Positions 8,336-46,295 of a stretch of 64,000 bases of DNA are shown here, one piece after another. The stretch comes from Candidatus Aenigmatarchaeota archaeon (GTDB lineage Archaea > Aenigmatarchaeota > Aenigmatarchaeia > JACPZZ01). Position 1 is the first letter of the stretch. Each line of letters begins with the position of its first letter. The stretch lies in NCBI GenBank assembly GCA_043801595.1, contig JAZDLW010000022.1:5526-69525 (forward strand), in the 5' to 3' direction. A program made the translations under genes and the position numbers. A model generated the notes under the pieces. That model saw only the letters and a program-made list of their open reading frames with translations. It had not been told where the DNA came from and did no database searches.

Positions 8336-11131
8336 ATGGTGTTCAGAACACTCGACGATAAATTGCAGGGAATAATCAAGAAGCGCTTTGAGAAGCCGAC
8401 GGAAGCGCAAGCCATGTCCATACCAGCCATAACATCGGGCAAGGATGTCTTATTGATTGCACCGACAGGAATAGGAAAAACTGAAAGCGCAATGATTGGA
8501 ATTTTCAACAGATGGGTTCGAGAGAAACAAAAACCAATAAGCATACTTTACATAACGCCGCTGAGGAGCCTTAACCGCGACTTGTTAAGCAGGCTAAGGT
8601 GGTGGGCGTCCGAATTGGATATGGAAATTGCAGTTCGCCATGGCGATACTACGCAATACGAGCGCGGCAAACAGGCAGCGATGCCTAGCGACATACTGAT
8701 AACAACGCCCGAGACGCTGCAAGCGATGCTAACAGGCTCTGTTCTGCGAAAGAACCTATCGAACATAAGGTTCGTTGTCATAGACGAGGTCCATGAACTG
8801 ATAAACTCGAAGCGCGGCGCGCAATTGAGCATAGGTCTGGAGCGACTCCGAAACCTGACAGGCGATTTCCAGACAGTCGGTTTATCGGCAACAATCGGAA
8901 ACCCCGCTGAAGTTGCGGCGTTTTTAAACGGCGCGAGAAAGTGCGAGATTATAAAATCCGTTGACGCGAAAAAGATGAATATTGTTGTTGAGGCAGTCAA
9001 GACTGAAGACAATGACGCGAAGACGTCGTCGGAACTTCTGGTAGGAATCGATACAGCTGCGAGGCTAAGAAGAATACTGGAGATACTCGGAAAAAGAAAA
9101 TCCGTGATAATATTCACAAACACGCGCGAATTTGCGGAGATACTTAGTTCCAGATTAAAAAAGATAAGCGCTCAGCGGATAGAGACGCACCACGGATCTT
9201 TGGCGAAAGATGTACGGATTGAATTTGAAAAAGGTTTCAAGGACGAGAGCATAAAGGCTTTGGTCGCCACTTCGTCGTTGGAACTGGGCATTGACATCGG
9301 CGCGATAGAAACCGTAATACAGTACCAAAGCCCGAGACAGGTTTCGAAATTAATACAGCGTGTCGGGCGCTCGGGTCATGCGATCGGACGGACGTCAGAA
9401 GGCATTATTCTTGCGACTGGGATCGATGATGCGATAGAGTCGGCGGCGATAGCGAAGCTTGCCTTAAACGGAAAGGTTGAAAAACCGAAGCCGCACAAGC
9501 TTGCAATGGACGTTGTCGCACACCAAATAGTCGGGATGACGCTCGAAACATTTTCAATGAGGATGAAGGACGCTTACGAAACCATTAAGAAATCATACCT
9601 TTACAAGGATCTGGACTACAAGACATTTTTGGCAGTATGCAAACAATTGCAGCAGCTCGGACATGTCTATATCAACGGAGACGTTGTCACGCGGAAAAGG
9701 AACGGATGGAACTACTACTTTGAAAATCTCAGCACAATACCGTCGGTAAAACAATACAGAATATTTGACATGATATCGCGGAAAGGCGTGGGAACGCTGG
9801 ACGACGAATTTATAGCATTGCACGGCCAGGTTGGCACAACATTTGTTGTCAAGGGCCAGTCCTGGAGAATAGTCGATATCGACAATGATATGATAAATGT
9901 GGAGCCGGCCGATGACATTGAAGCCTCCATACCTGCGTGGGAGGGCGAGCTGATTCCTGTTCCGTACGAAGTCGCGCAGGAGGCGCTGAAAATAAAAACA
10001 GAAGTTTCGGCAATGCTTTCCGGCGGTCGCAAAGACGAGGCCGGCGAATTCCTGACAAAGAATTATCCGGTCGATTCGGAAGCGTCGAGCCTGATAATAA
10101 ACGCGCTGAAAAAACAGTCCAAGAATTTCGGCTATGCGCAAAACGAAATCGTCATCGAAACTTTCGGGAACATGACAGTAATACATTCCCATTTCGGATC
10201 GCTGGCGAACGATACGCTCGGGCGGGCGCTGACATTTTATCTTTCCGACAGGATAGGCACGGTCATACTGAAAACCGATCCGTACAGGATAACGCTGAGG
10301 TGCCAGAAGAGTGCAACGAAACACATATTGGATTTCTTCGGCAGTGTCGATGAAAAAGATGTCGAAGTTTATTTGCGGGAAAACATACACCGTTCGGATT
10401 TATTCACGTGGCGGTTCTTCCACAATGCAAAAAGGTTCGGTGCGATTGCGAAGACTGCAGACCTAACGGCGATACCGATGAAAAAGATAGCGGAGATCTA
10501 TCAGGGAACGCCGATATACGAAGAGACAATGAGAGAGATATTTCTCGAAAAGCTGGGTTTCGAAAGGGCTCGGAATGTTCTCAAGGATGTACGAAACGGC
10601 GCGATAAAAATCATACAAGCCGACGGACCTTCGTTGTTCGGAAAGCTGGGCTTGCAAAAGGAATTCGGCGAGGCGATAGGACCGGAGCGACCTGAGACGG
10701 AGATATTGAAAATATTCAAAGACCGCATCAACGAAACGCGCATGAGAATGGTGTGCATGAATTGCGGCAAATGGCTCTGGCTGGGAATGGTTAAAGAATC
10801 GCCGGAAAAATCGAAGTGCGGAAAATGCGGGGCTGCGTTGATAACAGCCATGCGCGAATATGAAAGGTTGACGGAACAGGCTGTGATACGGCGAACAGAA
10901 AAGAAAACGCTGACGCCAGAACAGGAGAAGTTATACGAAGAGGCGCTTAAAGTCGCTGATTTGGTCATGGTAAGCGGCAAAGACGCGGTACGCGCGCTAG
11001 CGGGACGAGGAGTCGGTTATAAAACTGCGGCGAGGATTCTATCAAAGTATCACGCGAATGAGGATGACCTTGCGCGCGAAATTCTAGCAGCCGAGCGCCA
11101 ATACTTTAAAACGAAAAGGTTCTGGAAATAA
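8336..11131 (+). CDS. lhr: Lhr-type large superfamily 2 ATP-dependent helicase
   Basis: 931 aa. Motif I APTGIGKT, motif II VIDEVHEL, motif VI QRVGRSGH. C-terminal Cys4 ribbon CMNCGK...CGKCG. Confidence 0.85.
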   Translation: MVFRTLDDKLQGIIKKRFEKPTEAQAMSIPAITSGKDVLLIAPTGIGKTESAMIGIFNRWVREKQKPISILYITPLRSLNRDLLSRLRWWASELDMEIAVRHGDTTQYERGKQAAMPSDILITTPETLQAMLTGSVLRKNLSNIRFVVIDEVHELINSKRGAQLSIGLERLRNLTGDFQTVGLSATIGNPAEVAAFLNGARKCEIIKSVDAKKMNIVVEAVKTEDNDAKTSSELLVGIDTAARLRRILEILGKRKSVIIFTNTREFAEILSSRLKKISAQRIETHHGSLAKDVRIEFEKGFKDESIKALVATSSLELGIDIGAIETVIQYQSPRQVSKLIQRVGRSGHAIGRTSEGIILATGIDDAIESAAIAKLALNGKVEKPKPHKLAMDVVAHQIVGMTLETFSMRMKDAYETIKKSYLYKDLDYKTFLAVCKQLQQLGHVYINGDVVTRKRNGWNYYFENLSTIPSVKQYRIFDMISRKGVGTLDDEFIALHGQVGTTFVVKGQSWRIVDIDNDMINVEPADDIEASIPAWEGELIPVPYEVAQEALKIKTEVSAMLSGGRKDEAGEFLTKNYPVDSEASSLIINALKKQSKNFGYAQNEIVIETFGNMTVIHSHFGSLANDTLGRALTFYLSDRIGTVILKTDPYRITLRCQKSATKHILDFFGSVDEKDVEVYLRENIHRSDLFTWRFFHNAKRFGAIAKTADLTAIPMKKIAEIYQGTPIYEETMREIFLEKLGFERARNVLKDVRNGAIKIIQADGPSLFGKLGLQKEFGEAIGPERPETEILKIFKDRINETRMRMVCMNCGKWLWLGMVKESPEKSKCGKCGAALITAMREYERLTEQAVIRRTEKKTLTPEQEKLYEEALKVADLVMVSGKDAVRALAGRGVGYKTAARILSKYHANEDDLAREILAAERQYFKTKRFWK

Positions 11132-11249
11132 GCTTTTTGGGACAACGGAAAACCGAAGTTTTCAACGGAAACCAGTGGTTTCCGTGCACAGAAAACAAAT
11201 GTGTTTTCTGTGCCGTGCATAGGAAACCGTTGTTTCCTATGAAAAGCTT
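11130..11249 (+). repeat. Multi-hairpin intergenic element, long four-hairpin form (120 nt)
   Basis: Closing stem AAGCTTTT/AAAAGCTT, overlapping the lhr stop codon. Hairpins GAAAAC-cgaa-GTTTTC, ACGGAAACC-agt-GGTTTCCGT, CACAGAAAACA-aatg-TGTTTTCTGTG, CATAGGAAAC-cgtt-GTTTCCTATG. Confidence 0.85.
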
Positions 11250-11292
11250 AAGCAAAAATGGAAAGGTCAAGTAAAATATAATGGGAAAAGTT

Positions 11293-13130: not shown

Positions 13131-13171
13131 AAACTAATGATGACTTGCAATAATTAATAAGTGTGGTTTAA

Positions 13172-13672
13172 ATGAAAACACCCATATGCTCAATATGCTT
13201 GCAATCGGACATACTCTGCCAAAGCTGCAGCAACAACGTAGCGTCGGGCAGGTTAAGCAGGGAAGGCGCGGATATAATCAAAAAACTCTACCAGATGTCA
13301 AAGGAAATAAAATCCCTGGCAAACGTGACTGTTGAAAAGGTGCTTACCTTTGAAAGCCTTGTTGTCATCATTGTGCCGAAGCGTGATGTTCCCGGCATAG
13401 TCGGAAAAGAGGGGCGCATTGCGATAGAGGTTAAAAGACAGTTTGGAAAGCAGATCAAGGTTGTCGGCGACGGCGATTACAAAACAATGATTTCCGGATT
13501 GATGTATCCTGCCAAAATCGAAAGCATAGGAAAACTTTATTCAAACGGCAAAGAAAGCCTGAAAATAAATTTGCGAAGAGGCGAGCTGAGAAACTTGCCG
13601 GCAAGAAAAGAGGATTTGTTGAAGGCTGCCGAAGAGATATCCGGACGTGAATCGGTTATTTCTGTCAATTAA
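13172..13672 (+). CDS. Zinc-ribbon plus KH-domain RNA-binding protein
   Basis: N-terminal CSIC-x7-CQSC. KH GxxG core VPGIVGKEGRIAIEVKRQFGKQIKVV. Confidence 0.6.
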   Translation: MKTPICSICLQSDILCQSCSNNVASGRLSREGADIIKKLYQMSKEIKSLANVTVEKVLTFESLVVIIVPKRDVPGIVGKEGRIAIEVKRQFGKQIKVVGDGDYKTMISGLMYPAKIESIGKLYSNGKESLKINLRRGELRNLPARKEDLLKAAEEISGRESVISVN

Positions 13673-14534: not shown

Positions 14535-14546
14535 TCAAACCATTCC

Positions 14547-15059: not shown

Positions 15060-15109
15060 GCTTCACACTTCACTTTATTATTTAATCTTCTGCCTTAAAA
15101 TCTAATTAT

Positions 15110-15670: not shown

Positions 15671-15679
15671 GCGTAAACC

Positions 15680-15865: not shown

Positions 15866-15910
15866 ACGATACTTTTTTACCAGACGGGCATAATAATATT
15901 CTAGATAGCA

Positions 15911-16075: not shown

Positions 16076-16081
16076 AACTCC

Positions 16082-17944
16082 ATGGTAAACTTTATAAAAA
16101 GATCGAGGCCGACAGGCGAATTCCTGTATGCATTGCCGCCAGACCAGAATGGGACACAATTTGACAGCGTTCCGGGAGACGAATTGCTGGGAATACTGAT
16201 AAATCCAACAGGGCCGCTCGGCTTCATATCGCTCCTTTACATAAAGACAATGATACAGATGCCAAAGTTCGGGTACGGCGTTTACAAGTACAAGGACAAT
16301 TTCGAGATCAATCCGACTTACAGGGAATATTACACGGCAACACTTGCGCAGAAGCAGGATCTTGAAACGAAAATAAAAGCGGGCTTGGAATCCGCGGCCC
16401 GTGCAATAAGCGACTATGAACTTCTGGCGCACGACCTCAGGAAATACCAGTCCTATCTGTATCAGTTTAACAAACTCGAGGAAGGCAGGGAAAAGCTAAA
16501 AGAGGCGAAGACGGAAGAGGACAAGAAAAAATACGCGACACAGATTCTTGAGGCCAATACAACATTGAAAGCAGTTTTCATAGATCAGGTCGATGTGCAC
16601 ACGGGCGAAGGCGTTGCGCTCAAGCTCATAGTGAGCAGGTGGCCGAACATAATTGTGGATTTCATGAAACTCGAGGACGATATGAAAACGTCCGAGGATA
16701 TAGTGAAGAGGCTTGTTCCAAAGATCACTACTGCAGAGGCTGTTGTTCTGGCAACAAAGAATAAACTTTTTGACAGGTGGAAGGAAACGTTCCTGGACGC
16801 GGTCAAGCAGCGATACTTAAACCTGCTGAGCCTGATGAATGCCAGAAAAAAAAGCATCGAACAATACAAGAGATGGCTGCGGCCCTATGTTGTCCAACAT
16901 GAATTGCTGAACGAAACGCAGGAGAAAGCCGGCGAAGGCGGTAAAACGCTTACACACAGGTTAAAAATCGGCGCGCATGCGATGTCGACGCACGATCTCG
17001 GGGTTTTTGCCTGGAAGCCCTTTTCACCGGGCGATGTGTTCCGTGCGACTGTTGAGAGAAAAGAAATAGAAATTTCACTGAAATATCTTGGAAAAAAACC
17101 GGAGGAAGAGGCGGAGGATAAAGCCATACTCGCCAAGTACTTGGGCCAGTATAACATAGGTTATGACAAGATCAAAGGCGGAAAATTCACCATAACGTTC
17201 TGGATAAATCCCTACGATAAAGTCGCGAAAGAGGCGCTGTACTCGACAAATCCGAAGAAAGATTATATAAACAGCAAGTCGTTGATCGAGGAGTATCCGT
17301 GGCTAAAACCGAAGGAGATTGAGGGGCAGGTACTAAAAGTTTTGATGGATTCAGAAATGCAACCGAAGACATACCAGAACACGCTTGTGATGCATCCCGA
17401 TTATATTTATTACATACTCTGGGACCTCACGTTCAACAGGCAGATAATAAGCATACCGCAAGGCACAGTAGATGACGGATTCATATTTATAAAAATCGCG
17501 TTCATAAGCCAGAATGTCCTGTTGACGAAATTGCTCGAGAGGTGGGCGTACGAGCAAAGTTTTGACCGCAATGTCGAGGAGATTTTAGGATTGACGGCAA
17601 TAGAGGAAGTCGAGAAAATCGATGTTGGAACAACCGGCAACATGGAAGAATATGCCAAAAACAGATACAAGTCGGTTTACGCCGAGAAAAAAGGGAAAGA
17701 GGACAAGAAGCCGGTCTCGCTGATGGAATCGATCGTGCACAAAATAAACGAGATGAACAACCGGTTGAGCGTCATTAACATGATGACAGGACCATTCGGT
17801 ATAACGTTCCAATTGTTCAAGAAAGGACCTTATGAAACAAACCTCAAAGACAGGATAACAAGGCAATATTCAAAGGCGTTTGCGGAAACATATCGTGCAG
17901 AGTTTATCGACTGGTTCGAGGACGCGGCAAGAATAGGCGACTGA
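16082..17944 (+). CDS. Large hypothetical protein with central coiled-coil region (620 aa)
   Basis: Long ORF, GGGTGA Shine-Dalgarno-like sequence upstream. Lys/Glu-rich helical segment around residues 90-280. No recognisable catalytic motif. Confidence 0.65.
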   Translation: MVNFIKRSRPTGEFLYALPPDQNGTQFDSVPGDELLGILINPTGPLGFISLLYIKTMIQMPKFGYGVYKYKDNFEINPTYREYYTATLAQKQDLETKIKAGLESAARAISDYELLAHDLRKYQSYLYQFNKLEEGREKLKEAKTEEDKKKYATQILEANTTLKAVFIDQVDVHTGEGVALKLIVSRWPNIIVDFMKLEDDMKTSEDIVKRLVPKITTAEAVVLATKNKLFDRWKETFLDAVKQRYLNLLSLMNARKKSIEQYKRWLRPYVVQHELLNETQEKAGEGGKTLTHRLKIGAHAMSTHDLGVFAWKPFSPGDVFRATVERKEIEISLKYLGKKPEEEAEDKAILAKYLGQYNIGYDKIKGGKFTITFWINPYDKVAKEALYSTNPKKDYINSKSLIEEYPWLKPKEIEGQVLKVLMDSEMQPKTYQNTLVMHPDYIYYILWDLTFNRQIISIPQGTVDDGFIFIKIAFISQNVLLTKLLERWAYEQSFDRNVEEILGLTAIEEVEKIDVGTTGNMEEYAKNRYKSVYAEKKGKEDKKPVSLMESIVHKINEMNNRLSVINMMTGPFGITFQLFKKGPYETNLKDRITRQYSKAFAETYRAEFIDWFEDAARIGD

Positions 17945-17946: not shown

Positions 17947-18016
17947 CTTTTCTTTTAACACAGAAAACAACTGTTTTCTGTGCGCGGAAATCAAAGATTT
18001 CCGCTGAAAAGAAAAG
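17947..18016 (-). repeat. Multi-hairpin intergenic element, two-hairpin form, inverted orientation (70 nt)
   Basis: Closing stem CTTTTCTTTT/AAAAGAAAAG. On the minus strand reads GCGGAAATC-ttt-GATTTCCGC-g-CACAGAAAAC-agt-TGTTTTCTGTG. Starts 3 nt after the upstream stop. Confidence 0.8.
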
Positions 18017-20106: not shown

Positions 20107-20178
20107 TAAACTTCTTAAAACAACGGAAACCGTGGGTTTCCGTGCACAGGAAACGTGACGTTTCCTGTGAGAAGTTTA
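20107..20178 (+). repeat. Multi-hairpin intergenic element, two-hairpin form (72 nt, the cleanest copy)
   Basis: Closing stem TAAACTTCT/AGAAGTTTA (9 bp). ACGGAAACC-gtg-GGTTTCCGT (9 bp). CACAGGAAACG-tga-CGTTTCCTGTG (11 bp). All stems are perfect. Confidence 0.9.
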
Positions 20179-20223: not shown

Positions 20224-21018
20224 ATGGAAACAAATAAATCCGGAGAAAAAAAAGATTATGAGCCGAAGGCTCGCGTTTCGAAGGCAATGAAGTTCTCCAA
20301 GATCATACGCGAACAGTTTCCCGACTTTGTAAAAGGCGTTCTTTTGTTCGGGTCGGCTGCCAAAGGCGTGAAAAAAGCGGGTGATGTCGATGTTCTCATA
20401 ATACTCGACGATACCGATCCCAAGATATTTCCCGAACAAATTGACAAGGTTGACGAAAACATACGACTGATCGCGGACAGTATTGGGGACCTTCATCCGC
20501 AGGTTCACACGATCACGGATTTCTGGGACTGGATACGGCACGGAGACCCGATACTATTCAACTTTTTACGGTACGGATATCCGATATTCGATGCAGGCTT
20601 CCTAAAACCGACACAGCGCCTGTTGGAAGCGGGAAGGATAACGCCGTCGCAGGAGGCCATACGGCTCTACTCAAAAATCGCGCCTAAAAATCTTGAGAAG
20701 GCGGAGAGCTACATACGCGCAGCAGTGATAAGATATTACGATGCGATGACAGCCGCTGCGCAGGCGGTTTCGATGCTCGCTTTTAAACACCAACCCGAGC
20801 CACGCGAGATACCTTCGGTGCTGGACAGGCTTGTAAAGGAAGGAAAGCTCGACAAGAAATTCGTGGACTATTATATTTCCGTTTTCAAACTGTGGAAGCA
20901 GATAGATCACAAGGAGATAACGGACATACCCGGCAATGTTATCGAGAAGCAGAGAAAAGAGACGAATGAGTTTGTAGATATGATGAAGACGTTCCTTAAG
21001 GGCTATGCGGAAGAGTGA
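20224..21018 (+). CDS. Pol-beta-superfamily nucleotidyltransferase fused to a helical HEPN-like domain (short form)
   Basis: NTase motif LLFGSAAKGVKKAGDVDVLIILDD. Conserved middle block NFLRYGYPIFDAGFLKPTQRLLEAGRITPSQEA. C-terminal helical module with KQIDHKEITDI. Confidence 0.75.
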   Translation: METNKSGEKKDYEPKARVSKAMKFSKIIREQFPDFVKGVLLFGSAAKGVKKAGDVDVLIILDDTDPKIFPEQIDKVDENIRLIADSIGDLHPQVHTITDFWDWIRHGDPILFNFLRYGYPIFDAGFLKPTQRLLEAGRITPSQEAIRLYSKIAPKNLEKAESYIRAAVIRYYDAMTAAAQAVSMLAFKHQPEPREIPSVLDRLVKEGKLDKKFVDYYISVFKLWKQIDHKEITDIPGNVIEKQRKETNEFVDMMKTFLKGYAEE

Positions 21019-22144
21019 CATGAAAATTAAAAGCGTGCCAAAACGAAAATCGATCAAAGACATAGCGCGAAAGCGAAGAGCGGACATGGTTAAGGCCCTT
21101 ACGCAGAAGATACTCAACAAATTCGGAAAATACGTGAAGTGCGTTGTCCTTGTCGGATCCGTAGCGCGCGACGAATTCAAGAGTAATTCCGATATAGACA
21201 TGTTTATCGTTATCGACGACACGAAAGTCAATTTCACGCCCGAGGAAAAAAGAAGGATAGACGTCGAGATCGACCTGGCGGCCCAAGAGATCAACAAAGA
21301 TATCATTGTGCAACCTGCTTATACGCTGACTGAATTCTGGGACATGGTACGAACATCGCACCCGCTGATATACAATTTTATCAGGGACGGTATTCCAGTT
21401 TACGACACGGGTTTTTTCATGCCCATAAAACGCCTGCTTGAAATGGGTCGCATACCTGCGACCAAAGAAGCCGCGGACGCGCTTTTGGACAAGGCGCCGA
21501 AGCGATTGCGCAGGATATCCGAGGTAAAATTGTACATGGTCGCGGAAGACTGCTACTATGCAATGGTTGATATAACCCAGGCCGTTTTAATGTCGCTGGG
21601 TTTTGCGCCCCCTTCACCGGGAAAAGCGGCCGATGAATTCCGAAGACACCTCGTAGACACGAAAATAGTCGAAGGAAAATACGCGGATTGGCTGGATGCG
21701 ATAAACGAGTTCCGCAAGGATGTGGAGCATAAAAAAATAAACGAGATAACTGGATCCGAACTAGACGAGTGGATGAAAAAAGCCAACGAATTCGTTGAAA
21801 AGATGCTGCAGGTTTCCGGAGGATTGGAGTTAAAGAAAAAGGAAAGGATAGTCGAGAAAAGCTATGACGTGATGACAAAGGCGATTGTTGCCGCGTTAAA
21901 ATCGGTAAATAAGCTGCCAAACGAGCAGGCTGAAATTCCGAGCGCTTTCAAGAAATACCTGGTGGACGAGGGGCTTGTCGAAAAGCATTATATCGATATA
22001 TTCAACCGCCTTGAAGAGATGAGAAACAAAGTGCACGACGGAAGGATAACGGAGATACCGGACAAGGACATATATTCGCACAGGGAATATGTCAGGAAGT
22101 TTATCCATCACATCGGCAAGATAGTAAAGGAAGACGAACAATAA
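21005..22144 (+). CDS. Nucleotidyltransferase fused to two HEPN-like modules (long form)
   Basis: VLVGSVARDEFKSNSDIDMFIVIDD. Duplicated C-terminal module with FRKDVEHKKINEI (R-x4-H) and MRNKVHDGRITEI. Alternative start at ATG 21020, just after the upstream stop. Confidence 0.75.
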   Translation: MRKSDMKIKSVPKRKSIKDIARKRRADMVKALTQKILNKFGKYVKCVVLVGSVARDEFKSNSDIDMFIVIDDTKVNFTPEEKRRIDVEIDLAAQEINKDIIVQPAYTLTEFWDMVRTSHPLIYNFIRDGIPVYDTGFFMPIKRLLEMGRIPATKEAADALLDKAPKRLRRISEVKLYMVAEDCYYAMVDITQAVLMSLGFAPPSPGKAADEFRRHLVDTKIVEGKYADWLDAINEFRKDVEHKKINEITGSELDEWMKKANEFVEKMLQVSGGLELKKKERIVEKSYDVMTKAIVAALKSVNKLPNEQAEIPSAFKKYLVDEGLVEKHYIDIFNRLEEMRNKVHDGRITEIPDKDIYSHREYVRKFIHHIGKIVKEDEQ

Positions 22145-28736: not shown

Positions 28737-28758
28737 TAAGCCTTTTCCAAAAGGCTTA
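28737..28758. repeat. Perfect 10-bp palindrome TAAGCCTTTT-cc-AAAAGGCTTA followed by the AGCGAAAAGAGAATGG motif
   Basis: Starts 16 nt after the dCMP deaminase stop. Same stem-plus-tail arrangement as 37773-37807. Resembles the closing stem of the hairpin elements without internal hairpins. Confidence 0.6.
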
Positions 28759-28810
28759 AGCGAAAAGAGAATGGAAGAACGTTTAATCAGGAAAGACGCG
28801 TTATCATGGT

Positions 28811-31821: not shown

Positions 31822-31842
31822 ACGCATACCTCGGGTATGCGT
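31822..31842. repeat. Single 9-bp hairpin ACGCATACC-tcg-GGTATGCGT preceded by GACAACG
   Basis: Lies between convergent rnz and trm56. The GACAACG lead-in matches the leader of the hairpin-element family. Possibly a degenerate member or a terminator. Confidence 0.4.
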
Positions 31843-32388: not shown

Positions 32389-32454
32389 CAAACTTTAAGA
32401 CAGCGGTTTGCTGTGCAAACCGCGCATAGGAAACTTGGTTTCCTATGAAGTTTG
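32389..32454 (+). repeat. Multi-hairpin intergenic element, two-hairpin unit
   Basis: Closing stem CAAACTT/AAGTTTG. Hairpins GCGGTTTGC-tgt-GCAAACCGC and CATAGGAAAC-ttg-GTTTCCTATG. Confidence 0.8.
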
Positions 32455-32470
32455 AACAAACGAGAAAAGT

Positions 32471-32537
32471 CTTTGGACAACGAAAATCATAGATTTTCGT
32501 GCACAGGAAATCAACAGATTTTCTGTGTTCCCAAAAG
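32471..32537 (+). repeat. Multi-hairpin intergenic element, two-hairpin unit
   Basis: GACA-ACGAAAATC-ata-GATTTTCGT-g-CACAGGAAATC-aaca-GATTTTCTGTG. Imperfect closing stem CTTTGG/CCAAAAG. Abuts the 3' end of tRNA-Gln. Confidence 0.8.
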
Positions 32538-32546: not shown

Positions 32547-32708
32547 TAGCCCCGGGCGGATTCGAAATCGGCAGTGCGAAACTTTCGCTGCGCACTTCCG
32601 CCGTTTACGGGTATCGTCTGACTGAAGCATGCGTATACTAAATAGCGCATGCTTCTAGCTACTACGCCACCCAAAGCCCGCCGTGCTTGGCCGCTGCACT
32701 ACGGGGCT
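32547..32708 (-). tRNA. tRNA-Gln(UUG) with two introns (58 nt after position 37, 31 nt between positions 53 and 54)
   Basis: Hand-folded from the reverse complement. Acceptor AGCCCCG/CGGGGCT, D arm GTGC-AGCGGCCAA-GCAC, anticodon stem GCGGG/CCCGT. The anticodon loop CTTTGG is interrupted by an intron containing the 10-bp hairpin GAAGCATGCG/CGCATGCTTC. T stem GGCGG/CCGCC with loop TTCGAAT is split by the second intron (AGTGCG/CGCACT hairpin). Mature length 73 nt, no encoded CCA. Confidence 0.8.
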
Positions 32709-32718: not shown

Positions 32719-32748
32719 AAACAGGTGCTATTTTGCATGCACCTGTTT
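32719..32748. promoter_or_regulatory. 10-bp perfect inverted repeat AAACAGGTGC-n10-GCACCTGTTT over the expected tRNA-Gln promoter
   Basis: Located 11-40 nt upstream of the tRNA 5' end on the minus strand. The AT-rich loop (AAAATA on the minus strand) sits where a TATA box is expected. Confidence 0.45.
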
Positions 32749-36013: not shown

Positions 36014-36065
36014 AGGTATAGAATGGCTCGGATCGCCAAAAAAACCGCGTTTCGCGGTGATAAAC

Positions 36066-36073
36066 TTTATATA
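36066..36073 (+). promoter_or_regulatory. TATA box candidate (CTTTATATA) at the head of the thrS-ftsZ spacer
   Basis: The same CTTTATATA string occurs at 20053-20061. If used, transcription would start near 36097 and include all hairpin modules upstream of ftsZ. Confidence 0.4.
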
Positions 36074-36180
36074 ACACTTTCACCAATTATTATCAATTAG
36101 GGAGTAGAACTCCTCGTGTAAAAGGCGTTCGGTAACGCCGATTCTTGGTTTGCACTATGACGTGGCAGGGTTACCTACCG

Positions 36181-36242
36181 CGTTTCACAGGTTGCGGGGC
36201 AACCTGTGCAAGGAAACAAATGTTTCCTTTGTAGGCGAAACG
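36181..36242 (+). repeat. Multi-hairpin intergenic element, two-hairpin unit
   Basis: Closing stem CGTTTC/GAAACG. Hairpins CACAGGTTGC-ggg-GCAACCTGTG and CAAGGAAAC-aaat-GTTTCCTT(T)G. Confidence 0.75.
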
Positions 36243-36265
36243 AGTTTTGGCGGTCTGAAGCTTCG

Positions 36266-36308
36266 CAGGTTGCAGAGCAACCGGCGCAGGGAAACACGGT
36301 TTCCCTTG
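36266..36308 (+). repeat. Multi-hairpin intergenic element, two-hairpin unit without an obvious closing stem
   Basis: CAGGTTGC-aga-GCAACCGG and CAGGGAAAC-acg-GTTTCCCTTG. Confidence 0.65.
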
Positions 36309-36321
36309 TGTTGCACATTTT

Positions 36322-36348
36322 GACTAGTCTAACAAGTTTAGACTAGTC
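36322..36348. repeat. Perfect 11-bp hairpin GACTAGTCTAA-caagt-TTAGACTAGTC
   Basis: Contains the self-complementary octamer GACTAGTC twice. Lies between hairpin-element modules upstream of ftsZ. Confidence 0.7.
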
Positions 36349-36352
36349 TGTC

Positions 36353-36399
36353 TGAACTTTTCAAACAACGGAAACGATCGCGTTTCCTCTGGAAGTTCA
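36353..36399 (+). repeat. Multi-hairpin element, single-hairpin unit
   Basis: Closing stem TGAACTT/AAGTTCA around CAACGGAAACG-atcg-CGTTTCC. Ends 10 nt before the GGAGGGG Shine-Dalgarno-like sequence of ftsZ. Confidence 0.7.
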
Positions 36400-37547: not shown

Positions 37548-37573
37548 ACTAGAATTGCGGTGCGATGAAGCGA

Positions 37574-37618
37574 CACAGGAAACGATAGTTTCCTGTGCAC
37601 GGTTTGCTTTTGCAAACC
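37574..37618 (-). repeat. Multi-hairpin element, two-hairpin unit in inverted orientation
   Basis: CACAGGAAAC-gata-GTTTCCTGTG then GGTTTGC-tttt-GCAAACC. This is the reverse order of unit 32389-32454. Confidence 0.75.
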
Positions 37619-37644
37619 TTTGAGCTGAGCACTTTACTAATTTT

Positions 37645-37766
37645 TAAACTTTTTAAAACAACGGAAACCTATGGTTTCAACGAAAACTCAAGAAGTTTTC
37701 GTGCATAGGGAAACTCGGTTTCCCCATGCCGTGCATAGGAAATTGTCGAATTTCCTATGAAGTTTA
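37645..37766 (+). repeat. Multi-hairpin intergenic element, long four-hairpin form (122 nt)
   Basis: Closing stem TAAACTT/AAGTTTA. Hairpins GAAACC/GGTTTC, ACGAAAACT/AGTTTTCGT, CATAGGGAAAC/GTTTCCCCATG (1 mismatch), CATAGGAAATT/AATTTCCTATG. Confidence 0.85.
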
Positions 37767-37772
37767 ATCAAA

Positions 37773-37793
37773 CAAGCTTTTCAAAAAAGCTTG
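37773..37793. repeat. 9-bp palindrome CAAGCTTTT-caa-AAAAGCTTG followed by AGCAAAAGAGAATGG
   Basis: The stem sequence equals the closing stem of the long element at 11130-11249 (AAGCTTTT/AAAAGCTT) but encloses no hairpins. Confidence 0.6.
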
Positions 37794-37838
37794 AGCAAAA
37801 GAGAATGGTTTTAAACCGTTCGGTACTAACATTATTTT

Positions 37839-38654: not shown

Positions 38655-38705
38655 ATATAATATTCCCAATACGTCCAATTTAAGGTTTATTGGTGATGTG
38701 ATTTT

Positions 38706-39449: not shown

Positions 39450-39469
39450 GTTGTCAAGAAAATAGTATT

Positions 39470-40111: not shown

Positions 40112-40150
40112 TTTTAGAAACGATTTAACGATACGCGTTTAATTCTAATT

Positions 40151-40642: not shown

Positions 40643-40659
40643 ATCGTGCGGTTCGGCGT

Positions 40660-41409
40660 TTATTTTTCAATTTTCTGCATCAGTTCTTCCATTTTTTCCA
40701 CGAACATCGTCGATTTATCGACAAGCTCGTCTATCTTTTCCGGTTTTAGCATTTTCAGTTCGCCGTGTTCGAGAAGCTTACAGTGTTTTATGACATCCTC
40801 GTAATATCTCACGTACTCGTTCGAAAGTTTTCGCTTGCGGACGAAATGTATTCTCAATTGCTCCGGTATCTGCTTTGGCGAAGGCGGCGATACGCCGACG
40901 GCCATCAACGGCGCCTGTGCCGCATCGACAACAGCGGACGATAACGCGTCTATTATCGAAACCGTATGGAACCGTTCTATTCTCAACAGACGCAAAGGCG
41001 ACTGCTGTATCAGCGATTTCATCGCCTCTTTCGTTCCCGGTACGCGACCTTCCACCAAAAGTTTTTTCAGCGGAAGGAAAAATCCGGACGGGTCGTACAG
41101 CGGAATTCCTTCCTTTATTTCCGTGAACGTGACCGGTGAACCATGCCGCACGAGCTCCCAGTAATCCGACAGCTTGTAAAAAAGCAGATTAATTTTTCCT
41201 TTCATCCTCGCATTATCTACGGCTTTCTGCGCTTCCGCTTTTATCTCATTTGTCGTAATGGAGTCTACCTGATTCGTGTCGTCCATGAGAAATATTATGG
41301 TTTCTCCTGGCTCCGCTTCTGTATGGGATATCATCCATATTGATTTCAATATCTCGGGGAATTTTTTCGTTAATTTGTTTACCAGATTTTTTATTTCAAC
41401 ACCTTTCAT
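40660..41409 (-). CDS. Nucleotidyltransferase/HEPN-like family member with degenerate NTase active site (short form)
   Basis: Conserved family block FTEIKEGIPLYDPSGFFLPLKKLLVEGRVPGTKEA and C-terminal module KLLEHGELKML. The G-S...D-x-D position reads ISHTEAEPGETIIFLMDD. Confidence 0.65.
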   Translation of the reverse strand: MKGVEIKNLVNKLTKKFPEILKSIWMISHTEAEPGETIIFLMDDTNQVDSITTNEIKAEAQKAVDNARMKGKINLLFYKLSDYWELVRHGSPVTFTEIKEGIPLYDPSGFFLPLKKLLVEGRVPGTKEAMKSLIQQSPLRLLRIERFHTVSIIDALSSAVVDAAQAPLMAVGVSPPSPKQIPEQLRIHFVRKRKLSNEYVRYYEDVIKHCKLLEHGELKMLKPEKIDELVDKSTMFVEKMEELMQKIEK

Positions 41410-42485
41410 TTTTTGATCCCCTTTAAAATTTCTTCCAGGTTCTTCGCGTACAGCCGCGACGTATACACGTCTTTTTCCGTGACTTCCTGAAGCCTGTTAT
41501 TATCCGAAGCGTTTTTCATCGCCTTTATTTTTTTCAGGACGTCGAGATATCCTTTTGAAACCAGGCCAGTTGCGATTAATTCCCTTTCAACGAATTTGAT
41601 TATGTTCCTGTCGTTTGCGTTAACGCCTTTCTTTTTCAGAATATTCCTGCAGGCGTTGAATGCGATCGAGTTTGATTCTTCTATGATCTCCCTTTTCTTT
41701 TCGATTTCCAAACGCGAAAATATCGAATCCATCCTGTATATGAAATCGCGCGCCTTGGTAATCCATGAAAACGTTTCTTTGGCAGTAAGCTTTGTCAATT
41801 CGCCGTGGTCGATTTTGCGCGTTATCGCGTAGAAGTCATCGACAATTTCGGCGTAATGATTCTCAAGAACATTTTTACAAACAAAGTGCTTGCGCAGCGC
41901 AGTTCCGAGATTTTTCGCAGATGGAGGCGCAACACCGTAGAACATCAATACCGCCTGCCCGGCCTCGACCATTGCATATAGTAAATCTGACGTTATGTCC
42001 TCCAAAAATATTTTCCTGACGTTTTCAAGCCTTGACGGCGCGCGCTGTATGAGCATCTGCGACCGTTCCATTGTTCCGCTCATCCTGCCCTCTTTTAACA
42101 GCCTGCTAAGCGGTTCGATATACCCCGATGGGTCATAAATGGGCAGAGCATCGCGCACTGATGTGAAAACCCACGGCTCGCCGGAGCGAAGCAGGTCCCA
42201 CCAATCCGTTAATCTTTTGGCTGGCTGAAAATGAATGTTGATTTTTGTTTTTTCCTTCACAGAACTGTTTATTTCGGATATGTCATCGCTTATTTTTGAT
42301 AATTCCGCGCCGGATATGTCAGTTGTTGCGTCATCTACTACTGTCATTACGTCTATGTCCGACGACGGTTTCGCCTCGCCGCGCGCAAAAGAACCGTAAA
42401 TCCATATTGCTTTTATTTTTCCGTCGTACTTCGAGAGTATTGAAGAACACGCTTCCTTGATAGCGTCGAGCGCGTCGTATTTCAT
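41406..42485 (-). CDS. Nucleotidyltransferase fused to two HEPN-like modules (long form)
   Basis: WIYGSFARGEAKPSSDIDVMTVVDD, family block VRDALPIYDPSGYIEPLSRLLKEGRMSGT, modules with TRKIDHGELTKL and a second divergent copy. ATGA overlap with 40660-41409. Confidence 0.7.
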   Translation of the reverse strand: MKYDALDAIKEACSSILSKYDGKIKAIWIYGSFARGEAKPSSDIDVMTVVDDATTDISGAELSKISDDISEINSSVKEKTKINIHFQPAKRLTDWWDLLRSGEPWVFTSVRDALPIYDPSGYIEPLSRLLKEGRMSGTMERSQMLIQRAPSRLENVRKIFLEDITSDLLYAMVEAGQAVLMFYGVAPPSAKNLGTALRKHFVCKNVLENHYAEIVDDFYAITRKIDHGELTKLTAKETFSWITKARDFIYRMDSIFSRLEIEKKREIIEESNSIAFNACRNILKKKGVNANDRNIIKFVERELIATGLVSKGYLDVLKKIKAMKNASDNNRLQEVTEKDVYTSRLYAKNLEEILKGIKK

Positions 42486-42557
42486 AACTAGATATTGGTC
42501 GTTTTATAATAAAACAAAGCTTTTATCCGTCTCGGACGTAAAGTAATATTGTTGCAT

Positions 42558-43148: not shown

Positions 43149-43204
43149 GCGTTTCCGAACGTTTTTAAATATATGCGCTGGAAATAACTAAAAAGGGAGA
43201 TTTG

Positions 43205-44083
43205 ATGCATACGACGAACAAGAATAATTTTATTTTTTGGGCGATTTTCTCAGTCGTTTTAACGCTGCCCTTGTTTGCGGCTGCGGCGCCGGTCGGTGCG
43301 AGCGCGGTCGGAGCGTCGCTGTTAAAAATGATAGGCGTTCCCGATGCAATATCGAATGGCGGCGCATCGACAATAATGTTCTATGTCGTAATACCGTCGA
43401 TAATCATGTTCCTGATAATGTACGGAATTCTTGACGAGATAAAATTATTCTACAAGGGAGGAATAAACTTCGCGATAGCGTTCTTCGCAACTTTGTTGAC
43501 AATACCATCGGGCGTTTTAGGCCAGATCATTGTCGGGATTTACGGAGGCGGGCTTGCGACACTTGCCATAATACTGGGGATTTCGCTGTTGCCGAGGTTC
43601 ATAGACGTTTTCGGTCCGCGTACGGGATTGCCTACCAATATCCTGAACCTGTTGTCCGGTGTTACGTACGGTTTTGTGATGTATTATGTTTTCGGCCTGC
43701 TTGAGGGCGGAAATGCGCTCGGCGGAGTTTTAAAGGATGCGACATGGATAAAATGGGTTTTTGCCATTGGCGTGCCGATTCTGGTCATGTGGAGGGGCTG
43801 GTGGAACAGAAGCCTCAATATGCGCATGGGAAGCGTTCTGAACGTACAACATGCGGAAGAGACGGCTGCGTTGCAGGCCGCAAATCGATGCAAGCAGGCA
43901 CTCCGTGATTTGGCAAATGTCACCGCTACTGGGGGCGGGTCGTTGGCAGGCGTGGATGCTGCCACTTACAACAATGCTATTATGAACGTTGAAACAATGT
44001 GCAGTCACGCTTATCCCGAGCCTTATCTCAGAACTTTGCCGAAAGGCACTATAACAAAGCTAGCAAATACGCATACAACCTAA
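43205..44083 (+). CDS. Membrane protein, member 1 of a five-gene tandem paralog family
   Basis: GGGAG Shine-Dalgarno-like sequence 5 nt upstream. Signal-like N-terminus FSVVLTLPLFAAAAPVGA. Family motif VVIPSIIMFLIMYGILDEIKLFYKG. Confidence 0.6.
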   Translation: MHTTNKNNFIFWAIFSVVLTLPLFAAAAPVGASAVGASLLKMIGVPDAISNGGASTIMFYVVIPSIIMFLIMYGILDEIKLFYKGGINFAIAFFATLLTIPSGVLGQIIVGIYGGGLATLAIILGISLLPRFIDVFGPRTGLPTNILNLLSGVTYGFVMYYVFGLLEGGNALGGVLKDATWIKWVFAIGVPILVMWRGWWNRSLNMRMGSVLNVQHAEETAALQAANRCKQALRDLANVTATGGGSLAGVDAATYNNAIMNVETMCSHAYPEPYLRTLPKGTITKLANTHTT

Positions 44084-44121
44084 ACATCTAATTCTTTTTT
44101 AATCCGCTACAATATTCTTTT

Positions 44122-44925
44122 ATGGGCAAAAATCTACTGGTCGTTTTCCTGCTATCTCTTCTGGTATTCCCGTTCGCACTGGCGGCTGAATCAACGCTTT
44201 CCGAGGGAGCAGTCAAATTCTGGGGCACGTGGTTCAATGTCCCTGCAAAGTATATGATATCGTGGCAGTCGATTGTCACGTTCGTAGTTGTGCCGATTAT
44301 CATAGCATTGTTTTTCGCCTATGAGATCTGGAAAGATCTGGGAATTTTTCACGCAGGCGCAGCGAATGTCTGGATCCCGATTCTGATAGTTTACATGATG
44401 CTCAGGAACGGTTTCTGGGACTACATCGATTTGTTTGTGTCAAGTACGCAGATGATTCCGGCACTGGTTCTATCGTTCCTCGCAATGCAGGTAACAAGCA
44501 AACTAAAGGGCAAAGTGACGTCGTTCGGCTATTCTGGAATTTTCGGCGGTATGGTGGGTTATGCGCTTGAAGCTGTAAGCGGCGGCATTTTTCTCGGGAG
44601 CATAGGTTTTATCATAAGCAAGGGTCATCCCGGTCCGCTGGTTTACATAATGGCGTCTGTTGGAGCGGGTTTGGGCATTTTCGCAATGTGGTGGGAAAAA
44701 CACGGAAGAAAGTCAGGATCGTTGAAAAATGCGCTCGGCGAGGAGGACCAGATAACGAGCGAAGAAGCAACGCTGGAAAAGGAGCTGAAGAGATACAATA
44801 AAATGGCCTCGCGCGAAAAGGACCCTGCGATTAAGGGTGTATACGAGGAGAGAATGGTCAATATTAAAAGGGAACTAGACAAACTGAGGGCGCAGGAAGA
44901 GGTTGTTGTGGAAGGAGCCACATGA
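44122..44925 (+). CDS. Membrane protein, member 2 of the tandem paralog family, with C-terminal coiled coil
   Basis: Signal-like LLVVFLLSLLVFPFALAAES. Motif VVVPIIIALFFAYEIWKDLGIF. C-terminal EEATLEKELKRYNKM...KRELDKLRAQEE. Confidence 0.6.
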   Translation: MGKNLLVVFLLSLLVFPFALAAESTLSEGAVKFWGTWFNVPAKYMISWQSIVTFVVVPIIIALFFAYEIWKDLGIFHAGAANVWIPILIVYMMLRNGFWDYIDLFVSSTQMIPALVLSFLAMQVTSKLKGKVTSFGYSGIFGGMVGYALEAVSGGIFLGSIGFIISKGHPGPLVYIMASVGAGLGIFAMWWEKHGRKSGSLKNALGEEDQITSEEATLEKELKRYNKMASREKDPAIKGVYEERMVNIKRELDKLRAQEEVVVEGAT

Positions 44926-44962
44926 TCGTTAACATTTAAGATTTGAACGAATAACTAATATT

Positions 44963-45559
44963 ATGTTTGCAGTTGCGTTCGCAGGACCGCCCACCTCTTC
45001 CCCCGCCTCGATTATTTTAAACTTGCTGGAAAAATACCAGGCACAACAGCTGGTCGTTCCGTTCCTTCTTACGTTTGTCATAGCGTACGGTGTTTTGGAC
45101 TCGATAAAAATATTCAAGAAAAACAGCATAAACGCGATAGTCGCGCTCGCGATTTCCTTTTACGCGATATTTTACGGCCCTTACGGCGCAATGGGATCGT
45201 TTTTGACGCAAATTTATGGCACTGGTGCGGTTGCGATAGCGGGACTGGTAATGATTATGATAATCCTTGGAGCGCTGAGTTTGGGCGGAACGCACATGCC
45301 GGGACAGGGCGTTTTTCAGAGGCTATTTGGTAATTCGTTCGGCCCGATAGTGGGAATCATAGTGGTTGTTGTTATGATATACCTGCTGTCGACCGGCTAC
45401 TTGCAGGGCGTTGGCATAAATCTAGATCCGGATACGACCGCATTTCTGATAATACTGTTGCTGATAATACTCTTCATATACATTATCGCAAGGCCGGACA
45501 GGATGAAAAAATGGTGGAACATGTGGGGTCCGCATTATCCGGCAGGCGGCGATTGGTAA
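44963..45559 (+). CDS. Membrane protein, member 3 of the tandem paralog family
   Basis: Motif LVVPFLLTFVIAYGVLDSIKIFKKN. Multi-TM. Confidence 0.6.
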   Translation: MFAVAFAGPPTSSPASIILNLLEKYQAQQLVVPFLLTFVIAYGVLDSIKIFKKNSINAIVALAISFYAIFYGPYGAMGSFLTQIYGTGAVAIAGLVMIMIILGALSLGGTHMPGQGVFQRLFGNSFGPIVGIIVVVVMIYLLSTGYLQGVGINLDPDTTAFLIILLLIILFIYIIARPDRMKKWWNMWGPHYPAGGDW

Positions 45560-45567
45560 CAATAAAC

Positions 45568-45687
45568 GACCTTTTTTAACAACGGAAAGCTTCTGCTTTC
45601 AACGGAAGCCACAGGTTTCCGTGCACAGGAAAATCGTGATTTTCCCGTGCCGTGCATAGGAAATTTCCGAATTTCCTATGAAAGGTC
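45568..45687 (+). repeat. Multi-hairpin intergenic element, long four-hairpin form (120 nt)
   Basis: Closing stem GACCTTT/AAAGGTC. Hairpins GAAAGC/GCTTTC, ACGGAAGCC/GGTTTCCGT, CACAGGAAAATC/GATTTTCCCGTG, CATAGGAAATT/AATTTCCTATG. Starts 9 nt after the upstream stop. Confidence 0.85.
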
Positions 45688-45739
45688 AATCAAAAAGGGT
45701 TTGTCGAGAAATAAAAACTAACGAAAAGAGAATGATATT

Positions 45740-46225
45740 ATGGTTCAGGACATATTCACGCCATTGCTCGGAAATCTCAATCAACTGGGTTTTTATAAGT
45801 TTTTGCTTCCTTGGCTGTTCACTCTGGCAATAGTCTACGGAATTCTTTTAAAAACGAAGATTTTTGACGAGAAAGAAAAAACCCTAAACGGCCTTATAGC
45901 GCTTGTTGCGGCGTTCTTTGTGGTAAACTACACACCCATTGGTTTTGGTTTGGATTCGTTTTTCACGCAGGCGTTCGGCGTAGGCATACTGATACTAACT
46001 GCCATTTTTGTGGTGCTGCTGCTCATGGGGCTGGTGGGATTAAAGGGCGAGGAAATATTCAAAGCCGAGAACATGAAGAACGGCGGCCTGGCAATAATGT
46101 TGCTGATTATTTTCATCATCATATTGGTGTTCATGATAGGCGGGGTGAAAATAGATTCGAGCCAGTTAACGCTGATAATGACCCTGCTGTTCATAATTGT
46201 TGCGGTTGCGTACATAGCGAAATAA
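45740..46225 (+). CDS. Membrane protein, member 4 of the tandem paralog family
   Basis: Motif FYKFLLPWLFTLAIVYGILLKTKIFDEK. Confidence 0.6.
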   Translation: MVQDIFTPLLGNLNQLGFYKFLLPWLFTLAIVYGILLKTKIFDEKEKTLNGLIALVAAFFVVNYTPIGFGLDSFFTQAFGVGILILTAIFVVLLLMGLVGLKGEEIFKAENMKNGGLAIMLLIIFIIILVFMIGGVKIDSSQLTLIMTLLFIIVAVAYIAK

Positions 46226-46295
46226 ACTTCTTAGGACAACGGAAAGCCGAAGCTTTCCGTGCAAAGGAAACGCATCGTTTCCTTTGAGAAGTTTA
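46223..46295 (+). repeat. Multi-hairpin intergenic element, two-hairpin form (73 nt)
   Basis: Closing stem TAAACTTCT/AGAAGTTTA, whose TAA is the stop codon of the upstream gene. Hairpins ACGGAAAGC-cgaa-GCTTTCCGT and CAAAGGAAACG-cat-CGTTTCCTTTG. Confidence 0.85.

Follow-up and report, generated by a model that had tools for sequence, protein, structure and literature searches.

Repetitive extragenic palindromic (REP) sequences of bacteria and their composites, the BIMEs and REPINs, are short extragenic palindromes that occur in many copies and in both orientations, form mosaic clusters and lineage-specific variants, often lie at gene 3' ends, and combine a conserved stem sequence, some positions of which covary, with a variable loop and a lack of target-site duplication. 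REP palindromes measure 20-40 bp, and their cognate REP-associated tyrosine transposase (RAYT), an HUH Y1 enzyme, is encoded by a single-copy gene that usually lies between REPs. Each REP consists of one hairpin that bears a GTAG or CGTC tag (PMC3733652); Y1 transposase classes of the RAYT type have not been seen in archaea (PMC6006769). The most widespread insertion sequence (IS) family in archaea is IS200/IS605 (PMC13343696), in which, as in the PATEs of Haloquadratum (PMC3119063), hairpins replace terminal inverted repeats and no duplication arises. Large surveys of transposable elements of the miniature inverted-repeat kind (MITEs) report high densities in some DPANN genomes (PMC11602168), and the RepRanger survey listed generic intergenic stem-loops ('REPs') in a few archaea, none of them DPANN (PMC12306157). 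Here we describe pairs of unlike hairpins, A and B, that recur in a 64,000-nt stretch (the window; 46% G+C) of contig JAZDLW010000022.1 from a Candidatus Aenigmatarchaeota archaeon, among archaeal housekeeping genes including those for Lhr helicase, an Obg-like GTPase, threonyl-tRNA synthetase (ThrRS) with an archaeal editing domain, and FtsZ. Bacterial REPs, BIMEs and REPINs are their closest analogues, sharing the properties listed in the first sentence, and we consider it probable that the pairs are miniature, non-autonomous mobile DNA elements of one Aenigmatarchaeota (DPANN) clade, similar to REPs and MITEs.

An earlier note on this DNA had described a multi-hairpin unit at eight intergenic sites, all of which carry the hairpins described. 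The junction between the two hairpins, expressed as the pattern CGTGCAHAGRAAAN{5,11}TTTYCTDTG, matched eight times in the window and never in 100 dinucleotide-preserving shuffles. Folded as single-stranded DNA, every unit adopted a closing stem, hairpin A, a 1-nt linker and hairpin B with z values of -5.3 to -9.6, and none of 200 shuffles folded as well as the real units. A covariance model built from 50 family members and run over the whole window with filters off confined its matches to the eight sites, resolving them into 11 A-B pairs and three extra B hairpins (11217, 37733, 45654), with no match at 1-11 kb or 47-64 kb. On the plus strand, pairs were matched at 46235, 20119, 32476, 11161, 32399, 37676 and 45598; where two inverted copies had been counted before, there are four inverted pairs on the minus strand (17958, 37573, 36185 and 36263). 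All 11 pairs are intergenic, with clusters at 36181-36399 and 37573-37766. A degenerate form suspected at 31822-31842 is a generic hairpin (16.5 bits, E 0.03) whose membership is unsupported, and the AATCAA tail ascribed to the unit was found at four of the eight sites, the others carrying variants (AAGCAA, ACTCAA, GAACAA).

That the family is dispersed was borne out, and related metagenome-assembled genomes (MAGs) hold many further copies. A pattern scan of one genome per species gave at least 93 stretches, about 50 of which, among the matches listed, came from six Aenigmatarchaeota MAGs; in what follows, labels such as L001, L004 and L115 denote the sampled loci (8-20-kb MAG pieces or contigs). 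The consensus core of 48-51 nt reads 5'-CA [ACGrAAAnn-loop-nnTTTyCGT] G [CAyAGrAAnn-loop-nnTTyCTrTG]-3', with the brackets enclosing hairpins A and B; a less common hairpin A reads ACGGTTTGC / GCAAACCGT. At their feet (ACG..CGT and CAyAG..CTrTG) the stems are conserved in sequence across species, and the unpaired bases, CA 5' of hairpin A and a G that links it to B, are invariant, whereas the upper stems and loops are variable; the spacing between the feet varies as well, with stems of 8-12 bp and loops of 3-8 nt. Hairpin A variants are biased by genome, ACGG... prevailing in the window and ACGA... elsewhere.

Stem changes had been proposed to be matched on both arms, and covariation is indeed strong. 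With 56 non-redundant copies anchored only by the three basal pairs of hairpin A, the CA lead and the junction to B, so that the test was not circular, positions 4-8 of hairpin A were Watson-Crick paired in 96-98% of cases compared with shuffle means of 33-68%, and none of 5000 shuffles reached the observed values; position 8 was GC in 22 copies, TA in 16 and CG in 15. Changes on both sides of the stem were found for 16 of 20 pairs in a MAFFT alignment of 50 cores (98.3% of cells paired) and for 19 of 20 in a model-fitted alignment of 93 distinct hits (97.0%), figures to be read with the caveats that the loci were chosen with the hairpin-B pattern, that the second alignment was fitted to the model and that some copies are mutual orthologues. 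No measure was reached in any of 500 shuffles, and sliding the pairing partner by one column lowered pairing to about 40-50%. The loops are hypervariable, with 40 different ones among the 56 copies.

Such compensatory change might be attributed to cis-acting structured RNA, that is, to 3'-end, terminator, stabiliser or processing modules that are under selection as RNA and spread or persist because every copy is of use to its transcript. In line with this, many window copies lie no more than about 10 nt from a stop codon or near the 3' end of a tRNA-Gln gene, four genomes keep a paired B-A unit directly behind a conserved RNA-like stretch upstream of ftsZ, their stems differing in a compensatory manner, the copies beside or in stable-RNA genes all read B then A along the RNA, and with the lead reversed many copies present hairpin A followed by UGUUUU. 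The pairing itself speaks against it: the 1833 stem cells comprise 1761 Watson-Crick pairs, 17 G.T, 27 A.C and 28 other combinations, which means that wobble is no better tolerated than helix-breaking mismatches on either strand. The orientation relative to flanking protein-coding genes is unbiased (about 14 co-oriented and 13 anti-oriented copies), and the tandem, divergent and convergent intergenic classes that are occupied resemble the background, both counts resting on crude gene calls. The strictness of Watson-Crick pairing together with unbiased orientation fits a constraint on DNA, or on both strands alike, rather than an RNA family with a defined sense. Copies are also gained and lost between close relatives, even between genes otherwise 2 nt apart, are nested in one another, and reside in tRNA introns, which are spliced out. 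Rfam holds no family for them: no element matched at gathering thresholds, and at E values up to 5 the sole hit on an element was sroE, with 22 bits against a threshold of 51. We therefore regard an RNA-level function of the family as rather unlikely; of the two interpretations offered in the earlier note, the REP/MITE-like one fits, and the structured-RNA one lacks support. An asymmetry between G.T and A.C as a sign of the transcribed strand was looked for and is absent (17 versus 27), and strict 3'-end placement or a coupling of orientation to genes was likewise not seen with these crude gene calls. By inspection, the hammerhead ribozyme core CUGAUGA/GAA is absent from the closing stem and the two hairpins, and a k-turn was discarded for lack of tandem G.A pairs.

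Indications of mobility come from orthologous sites that one genome has filled and another empty. The cleanest comparison concerns the hairpin AAACAGGTGC-atgcaaaata-GCACCTGTTT upstream of tRNA-Gln, which is empty in the window and whose loop in L115 holds exactly 51 nt (CAACGG...CCTATG, inserted at GCAA^AATA) with identical flanks and zero duplicated bases. L062 holds a 48-nt core where L031 has none, the flanks being about 93% identical with at most an ambiguous TCA duplication. Downstream of the orthologue of open reading frame (ORF) 16082-17944, L112 is filled and L046 empty, and in the same intergenic region as the 17947 element the copies of L048 and L112 are opposite in orientation to the window copy. 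Inserts of 85-100 nt occupy L106 and L029 where the genes of L014 lie two to a few nucleotides apart, and L001 (1411-1616) has about 200 nt of hairpin elements between the IF5A and arginase genes compared with a 2-nt spacer in the window (27190/27193). L053 and L103, about 90% identical, carry different copies, which lie to opposite sides of a 23-nt segment. Three genomes share, at six loci, a subfamily about 95 nt long that is sharply bordered and whose flanks are unrelated, and copies lie inside introns of tRNA-Trp (L089) and tRNA-Ser (L004). At orthologous sites, gain and loss of the core are precise, entail no target-site duplication and involve no terminal inverted repeats other than the hairpins.

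The sites of insertion account for two features of the unit. The targets are A/T-rich single-stranded parts of hairpins, either the loop or the 3' arm beside it; among them are T-run/A-run palindromes at gene ends, introns of tRNAs, the hairpin that precedes tRNA-Gln, and hairpin A where another copy provides it. Insertion into existing hairpins produces both the 'closing stems' and the nested 'long form'. Closing stems differ among copies, most being T-run/A-run palindromes, and when the core was excised in silico a perfect hairpin of at least 6 bp formed across the junction in 35 of 56 copies compared with 4.9% at random positions; palindromes of this type that hold no core lie at 28737-28758 and 37773-37793. 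In the long forms at 11130, 37646 and 45568, which are otherwise short forms, a further A-B pair is lodged between GnTTTC and CGT in the 3' arm of hairpin A; once 50-51 nt were deleted, each of the three regained a hairpin A of 9 bp without mismatch, the G linker and hairpin B. Nesting is also seen in minimum free energy (MFE) folds of the long forms, and two further nested copies, with the insert within hairpin A, were found among the 101 model hits. Nesting together with filled and empty sites is how a small mobile element behaves whose insertion, into A/T-rich unpaired stretches of hairpins, leaves the target unduplicated. The placement at stop codons emphasised previously is also better explained by insertion into T-run/A-run hairpins already present at gene ends. 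It holds for lhr (stop 11129-11131) and for the ORFs whose ends are at 17944, 45559 and 46225, and it is no rule of the family, whose intergenic classes resemble the background.

Stop-codon placement and conservation of structure over sequence are likewise properties of integron attC sites at the ends of gene cassettes. The resemblance goes no further: R''/R' core sites (RYYYAAC/GTTRRRY) are missing, the element consists of two perfect hairpins rather than a single long imperfect hairpin with extrahelical bases, the flanks are the syntenic housekeeping genes lhr, ThrRS, ftsZ and trm56, and no integrase is found among the window ORFs examined, so that an attC identity may practically be dismissed. 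Stems could also be a mutational by-product of intra-strand template switching, known as quasipalindrome correction, and hairpin-driven duplication, which would make and mend the palindromes with neither a dedicated enzyme nor a function. Near-perfect stems with hypervariable loops, nested-palindrome architectures and a single pair of reverse-complement loops (ttcg/cgaa), seen between near-identical copies of one genome, are compatible with this idea; the excess of loop flips, as a sign of cruciform dynamics, is non-significant (4 observed versus 1.7 expected, P about 0.09). What template switching cannot do, however, is distribute one 50-nt sequence, sharply bordered by CA...TG, among unrelated loci or hold the stem feet identical over about ten genomes. 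It may aid the maintenance of stems without explaining their dispersal, and as a full account we deem it very improbable.

The strand-symmetric and strictly Watson-Crick constraint would further suit host-maintained DNA sites, cruciform or protein-bound, that serve chromosome organisation, supercoiling or insulation and are not currently mobile; for bacterial BIMEs, binding of gyrase and IHF has been proposed. The feet ACG/CGT and CAYAG/CTRTG are conserved across species as such sites might be, and copies lie between genes and within T-run/A-run palindromes that resemble local promoter elements (BRE/TATA) and oligo-T terminators. Yet the variable spacing of the feet is ill suited to a rigid dimeric binder of double-stranded DNA, copy density differs several-fold between syntenic regions of relatives (about seven pairs in the window, three to four model hits in L115 and one in L113), and copies nested or within tRNA introns have no obvious organisational purpose. 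Maintenance by the host would explain retention and not spread, and we judge it quite unlikely.

The distribution is narrow. Among the matches listed, 62 A-B composites were counted in 457 kb made up of the window and Aenigmatarchaeota loci, and none in the 323 kb of 43 non-Aenigmatarchaeota stretches; the latter are chance matches in DNA of various bacteria and of a single Methanolobus MAG. The covariance model gave 101 hits in 505 kb sampled from about ten related assemblies and 13 metagenome contigs. A more specific pattern retrieved only 13 metagenome contigs, from groundwater-type records (Hainich, OBEQ), and all 13 are true members. A viral-contig scan yielded four matches, none composite, and BLAST against plasmids and phages yielded no match. 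Relatives with 71-85% ThrRS identity (L001, L113, L115) carry copies, and a relative with 57% identity has no copy in 21.7 kb. Fifteen of the 101 hits fall in open stretches of at least 150 codons, mostly ahead of the probable start codon and behind the stop codon that precedes it, and hits in L073, L103 and L003 lie deeper within short (160-196 aa) open frames. No description of the family was found in the searchable literature; the elements form an undescribed family seen in a small groundwater DPANN group.

Measured against the known systems, the elements depart from REPs in having two unlike adjacent hairpins with a CA lead, the GTAG/CGTC tag being absent from the family consensus, and insertion into the loop or 3' arm of other hairpins as well as self-nesting is atypical of REPs. 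They are likened to IS200/IS605 and PATEs by hairpins in place of terminal inverted repeats and by the lack of duplication, and recognition of folded single-stranded DNA is plausible here as well; they differ in that the core is only about 50 nt long and ends at the hairpin feet, and in that the feet of A and B are unlike. With MITEs that have terminal inverted repeats and target duplications (Correia elements; those of Sulfolobus and Methanocaldococcus) they share small size, non-coding nature, intergenic location, presence/absence polymorphism and nested copies, but they are shorter, lack the target-site duplication, and have no known related autonomous IS; their ends, CAACG... and ...CTRTG, are not inverted copies of each other. 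IS1397 and ISKpn1 insert in REP loops and members of the IS110/IS1111 family in REPs and attC sites, the IS110 type without duplication. Insertion into the loop or arm of existing palindromes is thus common ground; those elements are, however, protein-coding and larger than 1 kb, unlike the 50-nt non-coding hairpin pair seen here. Intrinsic terminators and the stem-loops of the RepRanger type are also stable hairpins between genes, some beside T-runs, but here we deal with a true sequence family with a fixed order of two hairpins, conserved feet and sharp-bordered dispersal, in which, moreover, the T-run precedes the hairpins in the plus orientation.

As a working model, the mobile unit would be the 48-51-nt core consisting of CA, hairpin A, G and hairpin B. 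An enzyme acting in trans would recognise and move it as folded single-stranded or cruciform DNA, reading the stem feet and the hairpin shape, and this requirement for recognition, possibly helped by template-switch correction of palindromes, would keep the stems Watson-Crick paired while the loops drift. Structure-based recognition, conserved feet and the absence of duplication bring to mind, by analogy, the HUH single-stranded-DNA transposases, and we infer that the mechanism may be akin to that of the Y1 enzymes TnpA(IS200/IS605) and RAYT. The host may have co-opted a few old copies, candidates being the pair behind the ftsZ-upstream segment and copies located immediately downstream of tRNAs.

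Several points weigh against mobile elements of this kind. In about 0.5 Mb of sampled MAG pieces around the elements, there is no ORF of at least 90 aa with the motif [DN]H[VILFYM]H...Y[VILM]xx[NQ], and the RAYT/IS200-like partner gene suggested earlier was not found in that DNA; neither tnpA nor tnpB lies near any copy in the 8-20-kb pieces sampled. All-against-all clustering of 1560 ORFs returned as multi-copy groups only housekeeping orthologues, HAD hydrolases and nucleotidyltransferase/HEPN-like paralogues, and no A...ORF...B arrangement, as expected of an autonomous parent, occurs among the sampled loci. The 5' flanks (AAAA, GTTT, GCAA, TTT, GA) show an A/T preference only, without the conserved target tetranucleotide that IS200/IS605 elements require, which argues against the classical IS200/IS605 mechanism. 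Given the diversity of the loops, copies within a genome are not near-identical; there is accordingly no clear sign of a recent burst of transposition, and the family may in large part be old. A B-A pair at the ThrRS-ftsZ site is kept in the window, L001, L113 and L115 with stems that are very different (CACAGGTTGC, CACGGGCCGC, CATAGGAAAC) and yet paired; this persistence points to host-level selection or conversion at that site, and co-option, conversion from other copies or an insertion hot spot could each be responsible. The copies downstream of tRNAs, in tRNA introns, in a box C/D-like frame and behind the ftsZ-upstream segment read B then A along the RNA in about eight of eight independent cases, which would not be expected of purely selfish elements; the L115 copy upstream of tRNA-Gln reads A then B. 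Finally, all data are MAG fragments. Apparent solo A hairpins flanking an ORF turned out to be the same palindromes read on the opposite strand.

A more far-reaching version of the mobile-element reading would see here the first REP-like system of DPANN archaea, with an undescribed mechanism in which an enzyme other than a classical RAYT integrates a 50-nt cassette into A/T-rich loops or 3' arms of hairpins, among them its own copies, tRNA introns and palindromes of terminator or promoter type, in a structure-directed, duplication-free manner, and in which some copies, once domesticated, serve stable RNAs and the ftsZ-upstream segment as 3' modules. Domestication of this kind could explain the uniform B-then-A reading; we put this version forward tentatively, as a possibility that falls well short of being probable. 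Independently of it, the family deserves interest for its DPANN host, for which no cognate enzyme class is known, and for its unusually clean hairpin-in-hairpin insertion. DPANN genomes are very small and thought to be poor in repeats, and this clade tolerates about one element per 6-10 kb. With exact filled/empty pairs, nesting and covariation of a DNA rather than an RNA type, the family offers a tractable case for the spread of hairpin repeats in archaea, where REP-associated transposases have not been found, and its stem feet and shape provide a defined bait for finding the enzyme. On the practical side, the elements inflate intergenic regions, appear to break MAG assemblies, as several contigs end in them, and can mislead covariation-based screens for non-coding RNA (ncRNA), because strong compensatory change is here no sign of a functional RNA. 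Several JACPZZ contigs (L005/L091, L022/L033) begin or end in or beside elements, with flanks identical to other contigs of the same assembly.

Table 1. Elements of the hairpin A-B family and unoccupied target hairpins in the window.
Feature	Coordinates	Strand	Sequence details	Scores	Remarks
Long-form element	11130..11249	+	Closing stem AAGCTTTT/AAAAGCTT; outer hairpin A ACGGAAAAC..GTTTTC/CGT, split by nested A-B pair 11164-11213; outer hairpin B 11218-11241	63.8 bits; MFE -39.3 kcal/mol; z -9.6	5' arm of closing stem overlaps lhr stop codon; perfect short form after removal of 50 nt
Short-form element, inverted	17947..18016	-	Closing stem CTTTTCTTTT/AAAAGAAAAG	63.4 bits	Begins 3 nt past stop of ORF 16082-17944
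Short-form element	20107..20178	+	Closing stem TAAACTTCT/AGAAGTTTA, then tail ATCAAGAAA	68.2 bits; z -7.8	Excision of core restores hairpin TAAACTTCTT-aaa-AAGAAGTTTA
Short-form element	32389..32455	+	A variant GCGGTTTGC/GCAAACCGC; closing stem CAAACTT/AAGTTTG	57.2 bits	Between trm56 and tRNA-Gln (both - strand); absent from orthologous L001 intergenic region
Short-form element, weak closing stem	32460..32537	+		64.8 bits	B side 19 nt from tRNA-Gln 3' end
Old, divergent B-A pair	36185..36233	-	CACAGGTTGC.., AAGGAAACA..	42.7 bits	Directly 3' of conserved RNA-like segment upstream of ftsZ
Degenerate B-A pair	36263..36310	-	CGCAGGTTGC.., AGGGAAAC..	25 bits; E 2e-4	
Hairpin A alone	36355..36395	+	ACGGAAACG atcg CGTTTCC within closing stem TGAACTT/AAGTTCA		Absent from L001
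B-A pair	37573..37624	-		48.6 bits	Inside box C/D-like frame (GUGC-GAUGA ... CUGA-GCAC)
Long-form (nested) element	37646..37766	+	Closing stem AAACTT/AAGTTT, tail AATCAAA		Absent from L001; short form after removal of 51 nt
Long-form (nested) element	45568..45687	+	Closing stem GACCTTT/AAAGGTC, tail AATCAAAAA	z -8.2	Begins 9 nt past stop of ORF 44963-45559
Short-form element	46223..46295	+	Closing stem TAAACTTCT/AGAAGTTTA	69.7 bits (window best); z -8.6	TAA of closing stem is stop codon of ORF 45740-46225; outer module same as in 20107
Unoccupied target hairpin	32719..32748	-	AAACAGGTGC-atgcaaaata-GCACCTGTTT		Upstream of tRNA-Gln
Unoccupied T-run/A-run palindrome	28737..28758		TAAGCCTTTT-cc-AAAAGGCTTA, then AGCGAAAAGAGAATGG		Closing-stem type
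Unoccupied T-run/A-run palindrome	37773..37793		CAAGCTTTT-caa-AAAAGCTTG, then AGCAAAAGAGAATGG		

The closing palindromes have features of their own. They resemble the local BRE/TATA sequence (AAACTTTATATA), have T-runs on both strands and might act as promoters, terminators or both, and they often precede a AGCRAAAAGAGAATGG tail with an ATG about 27 nt from the palindrome centre, a spacing that resembles the TATA-to-start distance of a leaderless gene. Just 3' of T-run/A-run palindromes, a motif A(A/G)(G/T)C(A/G)AAAAGAGAATGG occurs in the window at 28759-28775, 37794-37806 and 45721-45735 and likewise in L001, L020, L028, L042, L061 and L106; in L055 and L061, the ATG of this motif is the ftsZ start codon.

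The segment upstream of ftsZ (window 36062-36185, plus strand) contains a TATA-like box (AAACTTTATATAACA) and, behind it, about 110 nt with near identity in L001 and about 80-90% conservation in L055, L061 and L115; by comparison, the ThrRS coding sequence that flanks it is far less conserved. Compensatory changes occur in its small hairpins (GGGAGTAGAACTCC versus GGGAGAATTTCTCC), and the segment, which has no Rfam match, is a candidate ncRNA or structured ftsZ leader. Another hairpin upstream of ftsZ, GACTAGTCTAA-caagt-TTAGACTAGTC at 36322-36348, stands outside the A-B family; it is conserved in L001 and has compensatory changes in L055 and L061 (GGGCTGTCTAA...TTAGAACAGCC). The box C/D-like frame extends over 37555-37635 (plus strand), with a terminal stem GUGC/GCAC, GAUGA near the 5' end and CUGA close to the 3' end; L001 (about 13240-13300) retains the frame and its B hairpin and lacks the A hairpin.

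The tRNA-Gln gene named in the earlier note is real (anticodon UUG; about 32547-32708, minus strand) and is interrupted by two introns, which follow the anticodon loop and lie in the T-arm region, respectively, and because of which ARAGORN and Rfam miss it. Its orthologue in L001 (8279-8353) is intron-less and called there, and the L115 version has an intron. In the syntenic region of L113, LAGLIDADG-type ORFs at 1-338 and 7444-8313 have no window counterpart, and one of them lies between trm56 and the orotidine monophosphate (OMP) decarboxylase gene, where the window has tRNA-Gln and two elements. Paralogous gene pairs at 20224-22144 (plus strand) and 40660-42485 (minus strand) encode a nucleotidyltransferase (NTP_transf_2/Polbeta), with a weak HEPN match in one, and recur in L048, L112, L113 and L115. 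A second dispersed hairpin type, (A)GCTAGAAGCAT...ATGCTTCAG(TC/GC) with 10-bp GAAGCATnnn stems, was found in several genomes, namely in the window at about 32640-32680 (tRNA-Gln intron 1) and in L055 (738-900), L061 (3878-3950), L089 (about 7700-7760) and L031 (about 2500-2600), and may represent another repeat family.

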